Shown here piece after piece: positions 1 through 55,277 of a stretch of DNA of 64,000 nucleotides. The DNA is taken from the sequence record LR746311; one strand, given 5' to 3'. Origin of the DNA: Shigella phage vB_SsoM_113. The notes beneath the pieces are model-generated. The model had not been told where the DNA came from and ran no database searches. It worked only from the letters and a program-made list of their open reading frames with translations. The position numbers and the translations under genes are program-made. How positions within the stretch are numbered: position 1 is the stretch's first letter; every line of letters begins with the position of its first letter.

Positions 1-581
1 ATAAAATTAATAATAAAATTTATATTGGTGTGCATTCTACCGAAAATTTAGATGATGGATATATGGGTTCTGGTAAATTATTAAAACGAGCCCAAGATAA
101 GTATGGTATAGAAAATTTCTCTAAAGAAATATTAGAGTATTTTGATGATAAAGAATCTATGCTTGAAGCCGAGAAAAATATTGTTACAGAAGAGTTTTTA
201 AATAGACCAGATGTGTATAATTTAAAACTTGGCGGTGAAGGTGGATGGGACCATATAAATAATTATCCTATGACAGATCAGCAACGCGAATTAATTTCAT
301 TGGGTGTTAAAAAGGCACATTCTAATGGAAAATTAAAAGGATGGTCTTCAAATGGATTAATGAAGAATGGCTTTGCTGGTAAAACTCATTCTCAAGAAGC
401 TAAACGTAAAATAGCAAAAGCGAACGAAGCAAAAGTTTCTGCAGATGAAAGAAAAAGAAGAATAGAAATTTCTAAATTATATGATTTTTCTAAGCGCGGT
501 GAATTATCTAAATATGCTAAGCATATTGTCGTAAGTCATACTCAAGCAAAAAGAATTCTAAATCAAATTAACAATATATAA
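1..581 (+). CDS. segB: GIY-YIG homing endonuclease (SegB-like), 5' end outside window
   Basis: Open in frame from window edge to stop at 579-581; N-terminus KIYIGVHST...YMGSGKLL fits the YIG half of GIY-YIG; sits directly upstream of the tRNA cluster as recalled for T4 segB. Confidence 0.6.
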   Translation, partial: KINNKIYIGVHSTENLDDGYMGSGKLLKRAQDKYGIENFSKEILEYFDDKESMLEAEKNIVTEEFLNRPDVYNLKLGGEGGWDHINNYPMTDQQRELISLGVKKAHSNGKLKGWSSNGLMKNGFAGKTHSQEAKRKIAKANEAKVSADERKRRIEISKLYDFSKRGELSKYAKHIVVSHTQAKRILNQINNI

Positions 582-1797: not shown

Positions 1798-1805
1798 TAT
1801 AAATA
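1798..1805 (+). promoter_or_regulatory. T4-type late promoter box TATAAATA
   Basis: Exact TATAAATA about 40 nt upstream of the first CTS-protein gene. Confidence 0.6.
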
Positions 1806-1845: not shown

Positions 1846-2319
1846 ATGAAATCATATGCTCAATTTTTAAATGAAGCGGTGTTAAATGAAGCATCTAGCA
1901 CCGAAATTCAAGCTGTCGCAAAAGCAGCCATTGCAGCGGGTAAATATTCCTATAAAGATGCTTCTGACGAATCACGATTCCAGTTTGCTCGCGACATGAA
2001 AGCAGAAGGATTTACGGGAAATGCAGTTAGTATGGCCTGGAAAAGTTTAGTTGCTACTGGCGCTGCTTTTGCAAAGGCTTCGGGTAAACCTGCTCCTAAA
2101 GCAGATCCTAAAGCTACACAAGAAAAAAATATCGTTAAAGGAATTATCGCTAAATATGAAGCTATCCTTAAAGAGCTTTTAGTAATCAAAACCGAAGGCC
2201 AAAAGTTAGCCCGTGCTTATAGTTTCAAAGATAATCCGCATGTTCACTCTCTTGAGTATGTTGAAGACATCCAAAAAATTATTAAAGACCGCATTTGGTC
2301 TGCTAAACAAATCAAATAA
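1846..2319 (+). CDS. internal head protein-like (capsid targeting sequence at N-terminus)
   Basis: N-terminus MKSYAQFLNEA matches the T4 internal-protein targeting pattern MKTYQEFIAEA (recalled); late promoter upstream; terminator downstream. Confidence 0.7.
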   Translation: MKSYAQFLNEAVLNEASSTEIQAVAKAAIAAGKYSYKDASDESRFQFARDMKAEGFTGNAVSMAWKSLVATGAAFAKASGKPAPKADPKATQEKNIVKGIIAKYEAILKELLVIKTEGQKLARAYSFKDNPHVHSLEYVEDIQKIIKDRIWSAKQIK

Positions 2320-2444: not shown

Positions 2445-3008
2445 ATGAAAACCTATGCCGAATTTTTAACCGAAGCAGCAAAATTACCATCTGAAGCAGA
2501 TCTTACTAAAGTATTCTTCCACTTGGACCCAAAAGACCGCGGCGATTTTCTTAAGTGGAAAGCTAAAGCTATTGAAATGTACAACATCGATAATAGTTCT
2601 TTTACAATGAGTCAAGAAAATAAATTCAATAAAGCATTTTTCAAAATTTCTAAGAAATTGGCATCTGGCGCTCAGGTTCCTAAATCTGTATTAGCTACTC
2701 CTGAACGTGCACCTGTTAAAATTTCTAAGAATATGTTCGACACTAAAAAATACGTTAATGCTTTGAATAAAGCTCTTGATGCATTGGATGATGCAAAGAA
2801 GGCAGCCCGCGATCTTCAAGACGTGTACACCGATTTTGACCGCAAAACTAAAGGTTCTATTTCAAATAGCGAACGCAATAGTGTAAGTGTTTATTCTGAT
2901 AGCCTTGATGTTCTTGGCGATGCGTATACTGAAATTAAAAATCGTATTAACACTGCATCTAAGCTAAAAGCTGCTGCAGAAGCTATAATAACTAAACTAG
3001 GTAAATAA
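2445..3008 (+). CDS. internal head protein-like (capsid targeting sequence at N-terminus)
   Basis: N-terminus MKTYAEFLTEAAKLP; basic and Lys-rich; terminator hairpin follows. Confidence 0.7.
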   Translation: MKTYAEFLTEAAKLPSEADLTKVFFHLDPKDRGDFLKWKAKAIEMYNIDNSSFTMSQENKFNKAFFKISKKLASGAQVPKSVLATPERAPVKISKNMFDTKKYVNALNKALDALDDAKKAARDLQDVYTDFDRKTKGSISNSERNSVSVYSDSLDVLGDAYTEIKNRINTASKLKAAAEAIITKLGK

Positions 3009-51985: not shown

Positions 51986-52279
51986 ATGAAAAAATTTATC
52001 TTTGCTGCAATTTTTGCTTTATCTTCTTGCGCTGCTCAGCCTGCTATGGCGGGTTATGACAAAGATTTGTGCGAATGGTCTATGACTGCAGATCAGACTG
52101 AAGTTGAAATTCAAATTGAAGCGGATATTATGAATATCGTTGAACGTGATCGTCCTGAAATGAAAGCTGAAGTGCAAAAACAACTTAAATCTGGTGGTGT
52201 AATGCAGTATAATTATGTTCTGTATTGCGATAAAAACTTTAATAATAAAAATATCATCGCTGAAGTGGTAGGTGAGTAA
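51986..52279 (+). CDS. sp: Spackle-like periplasmic protein
   Basis: 97 aa with signal peptide MKKFIFAAIFALSSCAAQPAMA; position matches T4 sp (61.3). Confidence 0.7.
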   Translation: MKKFIFAAIFALSSCAAQPAMAGYDKDLCEWSMTADQTEVEIQIEADIMNIVERDRPEMKAEVQKQLKSGGVMQYNYVLYCDKNFNNKNIIAEVVGE

Positions 52280-52291
52280 TTAGAGGTTAGT

Positions 52292-52648
52292 ATGTATAGT
52301 TCTGAATTTTCATATTTAAAAATGGAAAAAATTTCATACGATTTTATAGATGAAAAGGTTTATTACAGCTTCCATGAACCACGTTTTAATAGTGAGGTTG
52401 GGTTTATTATAGTAAAAGACAATTTCATTTTAAAAATATATTCGGCATTAAAGGATTTTCACTACGAAAATATTAACCTAAAATTTGATAAAGAAAACGT
52501 TCGTAATTGCGCAGTAACAATTACAGGAAATAAAGGTACATGCGTTATGCTATCTGATGAAATTAATGATTTGTTAAATGATGTAGAAAAAGTTGCTATT
52601 CCATCGATTGATGACCAAATTTTTAATGCTTTTATGAATAGAGGTTAA
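52292..52648 (+). CDS. hypothetical protein (118 aa), T4 61.2 position
   Basis: ORF track; SD GAGG upstream. Confidence 0.55.
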   Translation: MYSSEFSYLKMEKISYDFIDEKVYYSFHEPRFNSEVGFIIVKDNFILKIYSALKDFHYENINLKFDKENVRNCAVTITGNKGTCVMLSDEINDLLNDVEKVAIPSIDDQIFNAFMNRG

Positions 52649-52649
52649 T

Positions 52650-52814
52650 ATGAAAACATATAAAGAATTTATTAAAGAAGATATGGTAGCTGGAGATTCA
52701 GGTGGTAATCCTGAAAATATCTCCACTGGAACAACGTCAGGTGCTGTAGTAAATAAAGGTCCTGAACAGATTCCTAAAAAGAAAAAAGAGGAATCTAAAG
52801 AAAAAGAAGAGTAA
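52650..52814 (+). CDS. small protein with capsid-targeting-sequence-like N-terminus (54 aa)
   Basis: Hand-translated MKTYKEFIKEDMVAGDSGG...KKKKEESKEKEE; SD GAGG upstream; ends 2 nt before the gene 61 start. Confidence 0.5.
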   Translation: MKTYKEFIKEDMVAGDSGGNPENISTGTTSGAVVNKGPEQIPKKKKEESKEKEE

Positions 52815-52816
52815 AA

Positions 52817-53845
52817 ATGTCATCAATACCTTGGATTGATAATGAGTTTGCATACCGTGCATTGGCTCATTTACCTAAATTCGCACAAGTAAATAATAGT
52901 TCAACTTTTAAATTACGGTTTAGATGTCCTGTTTGTGGAGATTCAAAAACCGACCAAAATAAAGCCCGTGGATGGTATTATGGTGATAATAATGAAGGAA
53001 ATATTCACTGTTATAACTGTAACTATCATGCACCAATCGGAATATATTTAAAGGAGTTTGAACCTGATTTATATCGTGAGTATATCTTTGAAATAAGAAA
53101 AGAAAAAGGTAAAAGTCGTCCAGTAGAAAAACCTAAAGAACTTCCTAAACAACCTGAGAAGAAAATAATTAAATCTCTTCCGTCATGCATTAGATTAGAT
53201 AAACTGGCGGAAGACCATCCAATTATAAAATATGTAAAAGCTCGTTGTATTCCAAAGGATAAATGGAAATATCTTTGGTTTACAACCGAATGGCCTAAAT
53301 TAGTTAATAGTATAGCGCCAGGAACATATAAAAAGGAAATACCTGAGCCTCGTCTTGTTATTCCAATTTATAATGCTAACGGAAAAGCTGAGTCTTTTCA
53401 AGGACGTGCATTAAAGAAAGATGCTCCTCAAAAATATATCACCATCAAAGCTTATCCTGAGGCAACAAAAATTTATGGAGTCGAACGAGTCAAAGATGGT
53501 GATGTATATGTTCTAGAAGGACCTATAGATTCACTTTTTATTGAAAATGGTATAGCTATTACGGGTGGTCAATTAGACCTAGAAATTGTTCCATTTAAAG
53601 ATAGACGTGTGTGGGTTTTAGATAATGAACCTCGTCACCCTGACACTATTAAACGAATGACTAAATTGGTTGATGCAGGAGAAAGGGTTATGTTTTGGGA
53701 TAAATCTCCCTGGAAATCAAAAGATGTTAATGATATGATTAGAAAGGAAGGTGCAACCCCTAAACAAATTATGGAATATATGAAAAATAATATTGCCCAA
53801 GGGTTGATGGCTAAAATGCGGCTATCTAAATATGCTAAGATTTAA
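52817..53845 (+). CDS. 61: DNA primase gp61
   Basis: 342 aa; N-terminal Zn-ribbon CPVCGDSK...CYNCNYH and TOPRIM region. Confidence 0.93.
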   Translation: MSSIPWIDNEFAYRALAHLPKFAQVNNSSTFKLRFRCPVCGDSKTDQNKARGWYYGDNNEGNIHCYNCNYHAPIGIYLKEFEPDLYREYIFEIRKEKGKSRPVEKPKELPKQPEKKIIKSLPSCIRLDKLAEDHPIIKYVKARCIPKDKWKYLWFTTEWPKLVNSIAPGTYKKEIPEPRLVIPIYNANGKAESFQGRALKKDAPQKYITIKAYPEATKIYGVERVKDGDVYVLEGPIDSLFIENGIAITGGQLDLEIVPFKDRRVWVLDNEPRHPDTIKRMTKLVDAGERVMFWDKSPWKSKDVNDMIRKEGATPKQIMEYMKNNIAQGLMAKMRLSKYAKI

Positions 53846-54042
53846 ATTAACCCAACTAAAGCAAATGCTAAATCTACGAATGTATCAAGAGTAATTACTG
53901 GAATATTAACGCCATGAGCAATAGCAATTGGCGATAAAACAAAATTCCAGAGTAAAATTCCTACCATAGCAGAAATAGTAAAAGCTATACGTTTTTTATT
54001 ACCTTTTATGGCATTAACAAGTGCCATTAATTTTTGTACCAT
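53842..54042 (-). CDS. small hydrophobic membrane protein (66 aa) on the opposite strand
   Basis: Only non-overlapped minus-strand ORF in the window; SD AAGGAGG 4 nt upstream of ATG; two predicted TM helices. Confidence 0.5.
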   Translation of the reverse strand: MVQKLMALVNAIKGNKKRIAFTISAMVGILLWNFVLSPIAIAHGVNIPVITLDTFVDLAFALVGLI

Positions 54043-54055
54043 ATGTCCTCCTTAT

Positions 54056-54079
54056 TGCTTTATATATTTATTGTATAAT
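54056..54079 (+). promoter_or_regulatory. candidate MotA-dependent middle promoter for gene 56
   Basis: MotA box TGCTTTA, 11-bp gap, TATAAT. Confidence 0.5.
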
Positions 54080-54113
54080 TAATCTACTAACCCATGAATT
54101 GAAAGGAAAAATA

Positions 54114-55001: not shown

Positions 55002-55009
55002 TATAAATA
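55002..55009 (+). promoter_or_regulatory. late promoter box TATAAATA upstream of soc
   Basis: Exact TATAAATA about 30 nt upstream of soc. Confidence 0.65.
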
Positions 55010-55040: not shown

Positions 55041-55277
55041 ATGGGTGGTTTCGTTAACATCAAGACCTTTACTCATCCAGCGGGTGAAGGCAAAGAAGTT
55101 AAAGGTATGGAAGTTTCTGTTCCGTTTGAAATTTATTCTAACGAGCATCGTATCGCAGATTCTCATTATCAAATCTTTCCGTCAGAAAAAGCAGCTTATT
55201 CTGATGTAGTTTCCGATGCAGCAACTTGGAAAACTAAGAATACTGCAATGTTTACGCCTACAGAAATAGGTGGTTAA
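55041..55277 (+). CDS. soc: small outer capsid protein Soc
   Basis: 78 aa; MGGFVNIKTFTHPAGEGKEVKGMEVSVPFEIYSNEHRIAD closely resembles recalled RB69-type Soc. Confidence 0.88.
   Translation: MGGFVNIKTFTHPAGEGKEVKGMEVSVPFEIYSNEHRIADSHYQIFPSEKAAYSDVVSDAATWKTKNTAMFTPTEIGG

Follow-up and report, generated by a model that had tools for sequence, protein, structure and literature searches.

In the internal protein IPIII of bacteriophage T4, positions 4 and 7 of the capsid-targeting sequence (CTS) serve targeting and positions 8 and 10 serve processing (PMC9026906), and ten CTS residues suffice for the packaging of foreign proteins (PMC9026906, PMC9958956). Read directly from the T4 genes, ipII and ipIII start with MKTYQEFIAE and ipI starts with MKTFKEF. 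The prohead protease gp21 cleaves after L/I-X-E (PMC9026906); it removes the 65-residue propeptide of gp23, the major capsid protein, after Glu65 (PMC9546572, PMC7136217) and cuts the 10-residue N-terminal propeptide of gp24 between L-R-E and S (PMC9546572). The processed capsid protein, gp23*, carries an "unusual 25-residue N-terminal N-fist" (PMC9958956), which is internal and disordered in unexpanded heads and on expansion moves outside, touches four subunits and helps to form the Soc site (PMC9546572). The head-length mutations A66D, A94V and G97S lie in this segment of gp23 (PMC9546572). The localisation of proteins to the T4 scaffolding core is still called "mysterious" (PMC9958956). Gene 61.1 has been known as a hypothetical gene, and its resemblance to gp23 has been caught only by automatic naming, sometimes wrongly. 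Our literature search found no paper assigning a function to gp61.1, and none that describes it as a CTS joined to an N-fist paralogue, distinguishes its two forms or connects the CTS with the maturation site of gp23.

The window analysed here, a 64,000-nucleotide stretch of Shigella phage vB_SsoM_113 (LR746311), is a T4-type (Tequatrovirus) segment that shows 98.9% identity at this locus to phages PBM-1 and EPIMAM01. Its gene order, 41 - dmd - 61.4 (DUF7279) - sp - truncated 61.2/AdfA - 61.1 - 61, is that of T4. The 61.1 ortholog occupies 52650..52814 on the plus strand (54 codons and a TAA), an assignment based on identity to the T4 protein, the match to PHROG 1823 and the dN/dS ratio. Direct translation gives MKTYKEFIKEDMVAGDSGGNPENISTGTTSGAVVNKGPEQIPKKKKEESKEKEE, and T4 gp61.1 (NP_049649), which reads MKTFKEFIKEDMVAGDSGGNPENISIGTTSGAVVNKGPEQIPKKKKEESKEKEE, has the same 54-residue length and differs from the window protein only by F4Y and I26T. 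A Shine-Dalgarno sequence, GAGG, can be read at 52641..52644 (plus strand), 5 nt before the ATG. The stop of the upstream ORF, the truncated 61.2/AdfA, lies at 52646-52648, only 1 nt before the 61.1 ATG, so that the two genes are tightly packed. On the other side, the TAA (52812-52814) is followed by AA and by the ATG at 52817 of gene 61, the conserved DNA primase neighbour (52817..53845, plus strand), and the final 61.1 codons GAAGAG (52806-52811) double as a purine-rich ribosome-binding site for gene 61. The preliminary description of this DNA had proposed the ORF, its translation, its Shine-Dalgarno sequence, the 2-nt gap to gene 61 and the T4 61.1 position, and all of these hold, the last by gene order and by the 52/54 identity to the T4 protein.

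The surroundings differ from T4 in some respects. The gene at the 61.2 position (52292..52648, plus strand) encodes 118 aa, compared with 208 aa for T4 gp61.2, and its product matches only the C-terminal half of the Pfam family AdfA (anti-DarT factor A; profile positions 113-211). The phage thus has an N-terminally truncated AdfA, and the ability to counter DarTG may or may not remain. Unlike in T4, no dam methyltransferase gene is present between gene 61 and the dCTPase gene 56 (53846..54110); all that this interval contains is a 66-aa ORF on the minus strand (53842..54042) and a hairpin resembling a terminator (54008..54027). The window opens with a GIY-YIG (Seg-like) homing-endonuclease ORF (30..581, plus strand), which adjoins the tRNA/internal-protein region.

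The 61.1 product can be divided into three parts, all encoded on the plus strand: a CTS-like leader with a gp21-type I-K-E end (residues 1-10, MKTYKEFIKE; 52650..52679), a paralogue of the gp23 N-fist and the start of the N-arm corresponding to gp23 66-93 (residues 11-38, DMVAGDSGGNPENISTGTTSGAVVNKGP; 52680..52763), and a lysine-rich charged tail read from the sequence (residues 39-54, EQIPKKKKEESKEKEE; 52764..52811).

The leader is identical to the T4 IPII/IPIII leader MKTYQEFIAE at 8 of 10 positions and keeps all four mapped CTS positions (Y4, F7, I8 and E10), and its I8-K9-E10 fits the L/I-X-E rule. Identity to the leaders of the window's own internal-protein genes is 7/10 (2445..3008) and 5/10 (1846..2319). 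Of the window's 230 ORFs that start with ATG and have 40 aa or more, only 61.1 and these two genes have a start of the form [FY]xx[FL][LIVM]xE. Further afield, among short-form homologues of divergent clusters, 23 of 31 have CTS-like aromatic leaders. Given the 8/10 identity, the retention of the key positions, the uniqueness in the window and the fit to the cleavage rule, we consider the CTS resemblance real and specific. The internal-protein-like N-terminus noted in the preliminary description is thus confirmed, and the coincidental resemblance that it offered as an alternative is unlikely, since the key positions are kept, the leaders recur in 23/31 short forms and F-I-K-E falls on F-L-T-E65 of gp23 (see below). 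The P1' residue of 61.1 is Asp, and verified gp21 sites have Ala or Ser (gp23 E65/A, IPII and IPIII E10/A, gp24 E10/S; the slash marks the cut).

Both internal-protein genes of the window lie on the plus strand and carry canonical CTS leaders, MKSYAQFLNE/A (1846..2319) and MKTYAEFLTE/A (2445..3008); the mature parts of their products differ from T4 IPI, IPII and IPIII, as expected for a hypervariable class. At the nucleotide level, the 61.1 leader codons of the window are identical to those of T4 ipII/ipIII at 26 of 30 nt, and T4 61.1 (L001, 1967-2131) and T4 ipI (L023) are identical over the first 22 nt (ATGAAAACATTTAAAGAATTTA) and 7 residues (MKTFKEF). This sharing of 22-26 nt could reflect codon preference or the exchange of a leader cassette; as identical residues together with AT-rich codon preference can explain it, we make no claim of recombination.

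The preliminary description had recognised the T4 61.1 position and the CTS-like start and had missed that the rest of the protein is a paralogue of the gp23 N-fist. In BLASTP, residues 2-38 align with T4 gp23 57-93 without a gap (43% identity, E 1e-8), and a search of 177,635 distinct PDB sequences with the family profile returned T4 gp23 entries only (best 6uzc, E 1.2e-5). Using an alignment of gp23 N-termini assembled from annotated records of T4, KVP40-like, Aeromonas, Acinetobacter and Pseudomonas phages, hhalign gave a probability of 97.7% for the family (E 2.1e-12) and of 98.2% for its long forms (E 3.3e-14, gp23 residues 48-100). Glu10 is paired with Glu65 of gp23, the residue after which the prohead protease cuts, so that F-I-K-E of the leader falls on F-L-T-E65 and residues 11-35 fall on the 25-residue N-fist of gp23*. 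The two proteins have the signature GD.G.N..NI..G.TSGAV...GP in common, and several family members read L-x-E-A-E-[IV]-x-G-D or G-Y-D exactly like gp23. By these alignments, gp61.1 residues 2-38 are homologous to gp23 57-93 with Glu65 in exact register. Furthermore, the sequence before the gp23 cut, A-F-G-S-F-L-T-E, and the CTS have the common pattern [FY]xxF[LI]xE, and gp61.1 thus unites both signals in a single peptide. Across six pairs, 61.1 shows only a weak signal of co-variation with the N-fist of the cognate gp23 (12/720 permutations by identity, 42/720 by BLOSUM), with two of the pairs matched only at genus level and the signal driven by two lineages.

Pfam and NCBIfam contain no family for the 54-aa protein, and the Pfam Gp23 family also gave no match. 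In PHROGs, by comparison, family 1823 matches the window protein from end to end (residues 1-54, E 7e-34) and family 2086, the long form, matches residues 8-53 (E 2.6e-16). With the window sequence as query, tblastn located the family in 1,432 phage records, and with the family consensus in 1,516; among the host genera are Escherichia, Klebsiella, Shigella, Aeromonas, Acinetobacter, Enterobacter, Vibrio and Yersinia. The consensus motif hit 2,949 places in these 1,516 records, or almost two for each genome: nearly every sampled record had two places, the best being the 61.1 homologue in most sampled rows and the major head protein in two. A profile search of 1.84 billion cluster representatives yielded 50 clusters (at 50% identity) of 50-251 aa. 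The N-fist motif is missing from the gp23 of cyanophage S-MS29 and of Stenotrophomonas phage Yut3, and at the sensitivity of tblastn no cyanophage appeared among the 61.1 matches in the top-ten genera and the sampled rows; there are 380 Synechococcus phage records with gp23.

The gene lies directly upstream of the primase gene in T4, RB49, VH7D, Aeromonas 65.2, Acinetobacter DP45, JS98, KP185 and X20, and in Aeromonas 65.2 and VH7D it is the sole gene between helicase and primase. The distance that couples 61.1 to gene 61 varies among relatives, and when fused proteins were sought, no family member was seen joined to a primase, helicase or capsid domain. Gene 61.1 is thus near-universal in Straboviridae and adjoins the primase gene. 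Its dN/dS (Nei-Gojobori) against T4 is 0.09 (5 synonymous and 2 non-synonymous differences), with 0.10 for JS98 against ECML-359, 0.14 for ECML-359 against KP185 and 0.07-0.14 in other Tevenvirinae pairs with estimable dS, synonymous sites being saturated in most pairs and the ratio estimable for the remainder only. Across divergent homologues 18 positions are invariant, and the core does not vary in the family. The gene is under purifying selection with a dN/dS of about 0.1 and, in view of the PHROG 1823 match, the spread over some 1,500 records and this low ratio, is more than a chance ORF.

Homologues are labelled 'major capsid (domain-containing) protein' in GenBank and UniProt, although neither Pfam nor NCBIfam gives a capsid match to the window protein. 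Such labels on homologues of 55 to about 165 aa include OM337877 (KP185), PQ657791 (Roth17), ON515458 (BL02), MW250785 (UPEC03), MW629017 (PF-CE2) and others. As the similarity is to the N-fist, we regard them as over-annotations.

Two forms make up the family. In the short one (T4, JS98, KP185, RB49 and many metagenomic clusters), a leader of 4-18 residues precedes the motif. Long forms (PHROG 2086, about 145-165 aa) are present in 563-579 phage records and include the proteins of KVP40-like phages, Aeromonas 65, Acinetobacter phages, CC31, RB43, Cronobacter phages and the Tevenvirinae phage X20; with about 570 records that reach even into Tevenvirinae, the short form is likely to represent the derived state. 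For the N-domain of the long forms, about 95-100 residues in length, a helical structure is confidently predicted (AlphaFold pLDDT 80-98), the motif region falls below a pLDDT of 50, and the search for structural neighbours of the N-domain found none that was informative. We also considered whether 61.2 and 61.1 represent a split long form and rejected this, as the N-domain and gp61.2/AdfA align with an hhalign probability of 0.1%.

A Glu in register before the motif is present in all 62 of the family members compared, and P3 is L/I in 41 and L/I/V/M/F in 57 of the 62. Directly ahead of the motif, 3 of 32 long forms show a CTS-like pattern, against 23 of 31 short forms, and the leader and the N-domain therefore look like substitutes for one another; the distribution suggests that a 10-residue leader and a domain of about 100 residues are alternative solutions to the same task. 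The preliminary description had held that T4 61.1 homologues without the MKTY.EF motif would speak against its proposal. About 570 long-form records are formally of this kind, but they keep the hydrophobic-x-Glu in register, and so the idea of processing survives.

The predicted mature part of the window protein (44 residues) has 7 Lys and 9 Asp/Glu by direct count, a net charge of about -2, and its AlphaFold model has a mean pLDDT of 59.5 and a pTM of 0.18. Such low confidence for the motif in both forms is to be expected if, as in gp23, the segment orders only on docking (PMC9546572). A K/R-rich tail is found throughout the family, and in long forms the alignment of the tail with gp23 extends up to R100. 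In T6-type variants (P0002 and P0004; 62 aa), a frameshift converts the tail from KKKKEESKEKEE to the all-basic KKKKRNLKKKKSKNVINTLD, which runs into gene 61, indicating that the acidic end of the tail is dispensable or plastic. In the metagenomic relatives P0040, P0054 and P0058, an additional C-terminal domain of about 100 residues follows the basic tail and opens with a further stretch resembling a CTS (MNEVSNFKQFVEG, MTEMVDFKQFVES); a fusion to a downstream gene or a third architecture may account for it. The long-form model also aligns, at 23-47% identity, with the longer BFVD proteins A0A411BBR2 (672 aa), A0A1B1IT15 (913 aa), A0A6J7WVK5 (396 aa) and A0A7S5R3P1 (387 aa), which may be true fusions or products of faulty annotation.

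Directly upstream of the internal-protein gene at 1846 lies a late promoter TATAAATA at 1798..1805. On the plus strand between 13200 and 55002 this motif is absent, and hence there is none between genes 41 and 61. The Soc-like small outer capsid gene (55041..55277, plus strand), 2.2 kb downstream of 61.1, has its own TATAAATA at 55002..55009; as the N-fist helps to form the Soc site (PMC9546572), an N-fist paralogue is thus located near soc, which may be a coincidence. A MotA-box-like site lies inside sp at 52013, and a sigma-70 scan performed no better than on shuffled sequence. In time-resolved omics of T4, the 61.1 RNA falls in the early class, and LC-MS did not detect the protein (PMC9697503, supplementary file 4). 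The T4 genes ipI, ipII, ipIII, 40 and hoc are classed as "early RNA / late protein" (PMC9697503), and the early RNA class is thus no bar to a role in the head. The T4 head mass spectrometry supplement searched contains no mention of gp61.1, and our search found no paper that reports the protein in virions. In CRISPRi-ART, T4 61.1 scored 'Not Fit' (PMC11879866), and transposon insertions were recovered at 13/13 of its TA sites, with the call 'Non-essential' (bioRxiv 10.1101/2025.11.20.689424). The HIDEN-SEQ main text, which covers defence systems and clinical strains, has 0 mentions of a 61.1 phenotype, and one comparison was non-significant. T4 61.1 is therefore dispensable in the laboratory.

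In order to accommodate these observations, we tentatively favour, with a probability of roughly 0.45, the reading that gp61.1 is a prohead-targeted, gp21-cleaved mimic of the gp23 N-fist. The protein would be made from the early/middle replication transcript and persist until head assembly, when the leader, or contacts like those of the gp23 N-terminus, would draw it into the scaffolding core. Cleavage by gp21 after Glu10 would then release a disordered, N-fist-like peptide of 44 residues with the neo-N-terminus DMVAGDSGG... (in T4, DMVAGDSGGNPENISIGTTSGAVVNK), which presumably folds only on docking. This peptide might occupy, or compete for, the N-fist docking surfaces of the shell and in this way tune maturation, expansion or stability; alternatively, it may stay with the DNA through its basic patch. 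Since scaffold fragments escape through capsomer openings (PMC9546572), a peptide of 4.6 kDa could, by analogy, also simply leave by this route. In long-form relatives, targeting, here the task of the 10-residue leader, would fall to the helical domain of about 100 residues. A function in the head is favoured by the CTS leader, the register of E10 with E65, the homology to the N-fist, the conserved Glu, the apparent substitution of leader and N-domain for one another and the co-distribution with the N-fist motif, and the early cluster has precedents for head genes in gene 40 and in soc at 55041. It is weakened by the missing late promoter, the undetected protein, its absence from the virion mass spectrometry material searched, the Asp at P1', the long forms that have no such leader, the dispensability of the gene, the weak co-variation and the chance that so small a peptide would escape from the head.

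The same homology to gp23 can be read differently. A cytoplasmic decoy or regulator, made early and never packaged, might mimic the N-terminal segment that nascent or unassembled gp23 exposes and thereby tie up a host sensor, protease or chaperone, or a phage factor, to which this segment is a recognition signal, for example as an anti-defence protein or as a brake on premature gp23 polymerisation. We consider this unlikely, yet it is the rival to be taken most seriously: the gene is transcribed early, its neighbours dmd, sp and 61.2/AdfA are accessory or anti-defence genes, and a gene that is non-essential on laboratory K-12 and nevertheless under purifying selection has the usual profile of a conditionally useful accessory. 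The gp23 segment matched by gp61.1 also abuts the Gol region (gp23 93-122), which triggers the Lit protease; the similarity, however, ends at gp23 ~93-101 and does not cover Gol. Nor does the HIDEN-SEQ main text give a conditional 61.1 phenotype on the defence systems and clinical strains tested, and the decoy leaves unexplained why a CTS-like leader is specific to short forms. Hosts that range from Vibrio to Acinetobacter, moreover, argue for a phage-internal partner over a single host sensor.

The position of the gene invites a different reading again, that of a replication accessory which acts in the primosome with its lysine-rich tail on DNA, the similarity to gp23 being an evolutionary leftover. 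The gene order directly upstream of gene 61 stays the same in T4 and in KVP40-like, Aeromonas 65-like and Acinetobacter phages, helicase and primase have 61.1 as the sole gene between them in Aeromonas 65.2 and VH7D, 61.1 and gene 61 are closely packed and share a transcript, and the basic tail is found throughout the family. We judge such a role improbable. The close packing could even mean that the ORF is functionless, either a decaying fragment of a capsid duplication or a mere translated leader that feeds ribosomes to gene 61: it is very short, its end codons serve as the ribosome-binding site of gene 61, whose ATG follows the stop after 2 nt, its protein has so far escaped detection and the gene is dispensable. 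Against this stand a dN/dS of 0.07-0.14, a core with 18 invariant positions where synonymous sites are saturated, a spread over 50 clusters and about 1,500 phage genomes, and a coupling distance to gene 61 that is not conserved. The selection data already disfavour this reading, to which we give very little credence.

If gp61.1 is indeed a processed N-fist mimic, the implications extend beyond this gene. The CTS and the cleavage-proximal motif of gp23 might be one and the same core-docking and protease signal, with gp61.1 as a dedicated 'free N-fist' peptide delivered to proheads; this more far-reaching proposal is speculative and, as a whole, doubtful. Were it correct, a free N-fist cut by gp21 would dock or compete near gp24 or portal vertices or at Soc sites, and a mimic of a capsid arm would constitute a new class of head accessory factor. 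What can be described now is a dispensable, near-universal gene in which an internal-protein-type leader is followed by a copy of the cleavage site and N-fist of gp23. This arrangement suggests the CTS to be an imitation of the signal by which the N-terminus of the capsid protein docks and is processed, and it makes gp61.1 a 54-residue handle on this idea. The comparison also corrects the recurrent mis-annotation of the 61.1 ORF as 'major capsid protein', and it is of relevance to the engineering of T4 nanoparticles, which uses the CTS and the N-fist/Soc sites.

Among described proteins, the window product is the ortholog of T4 gp61.1 (NP_049649, UniProt P39228, PHROG 1823), with 52/54 identical residues and the same place between 61.2 and 61. 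With the T4 internal proteins IPI, IPII and IPIII it has in common a leader of the form M-K-T-[YF]-x-E-F-[IL]-x-E with its L/I-X-E end; unlike them, it is encoded in the 41-61 replication cluster rather than at the variable ip locus, has no late promoter, has Asp instead of Ala at P1', and has a mature part that is 44 residues long, predicted to be disordered and net -2 instead of folded and basic. Its long-form relatives (PHROG 2086; KVP40-type, Aeromonas 65, CC31, RB43) have the same core, hydrophobic-x-Glu, basic tail and locus, but a helical N-domain of about 95 residues instead of the 10-residue CTS-like leader.

With gp23 (PDB 6UZC, 7VS5, 5VF3), the likeness covers residues 57-93 (48-100 in long forms) without gaps and with the cleavage Glu in register. 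The HK97-fold body of gp23 (A, P and I domains; PF07068) and the first ~55 residues of its propeptide have no counterpart in gp61.1, paralogue-specific residues separate the two (MVAGD.GG and VVNKGP in gp61.1, IGGDHGY and VTQIGP in gp23), and gp61.1 ends in a lysine-rich tail where gp23* continues as the N-arm. A precedent for the duplication of a capsid gene in T4-like genomes is provided by the vertex protein gp24, itself a gp23 paralogue; gp24, however, is a complete, late-expressed HK97-fold shell protein without the N-fist, whereas gp61.1 consists of the cleavage site and the N-fist only.
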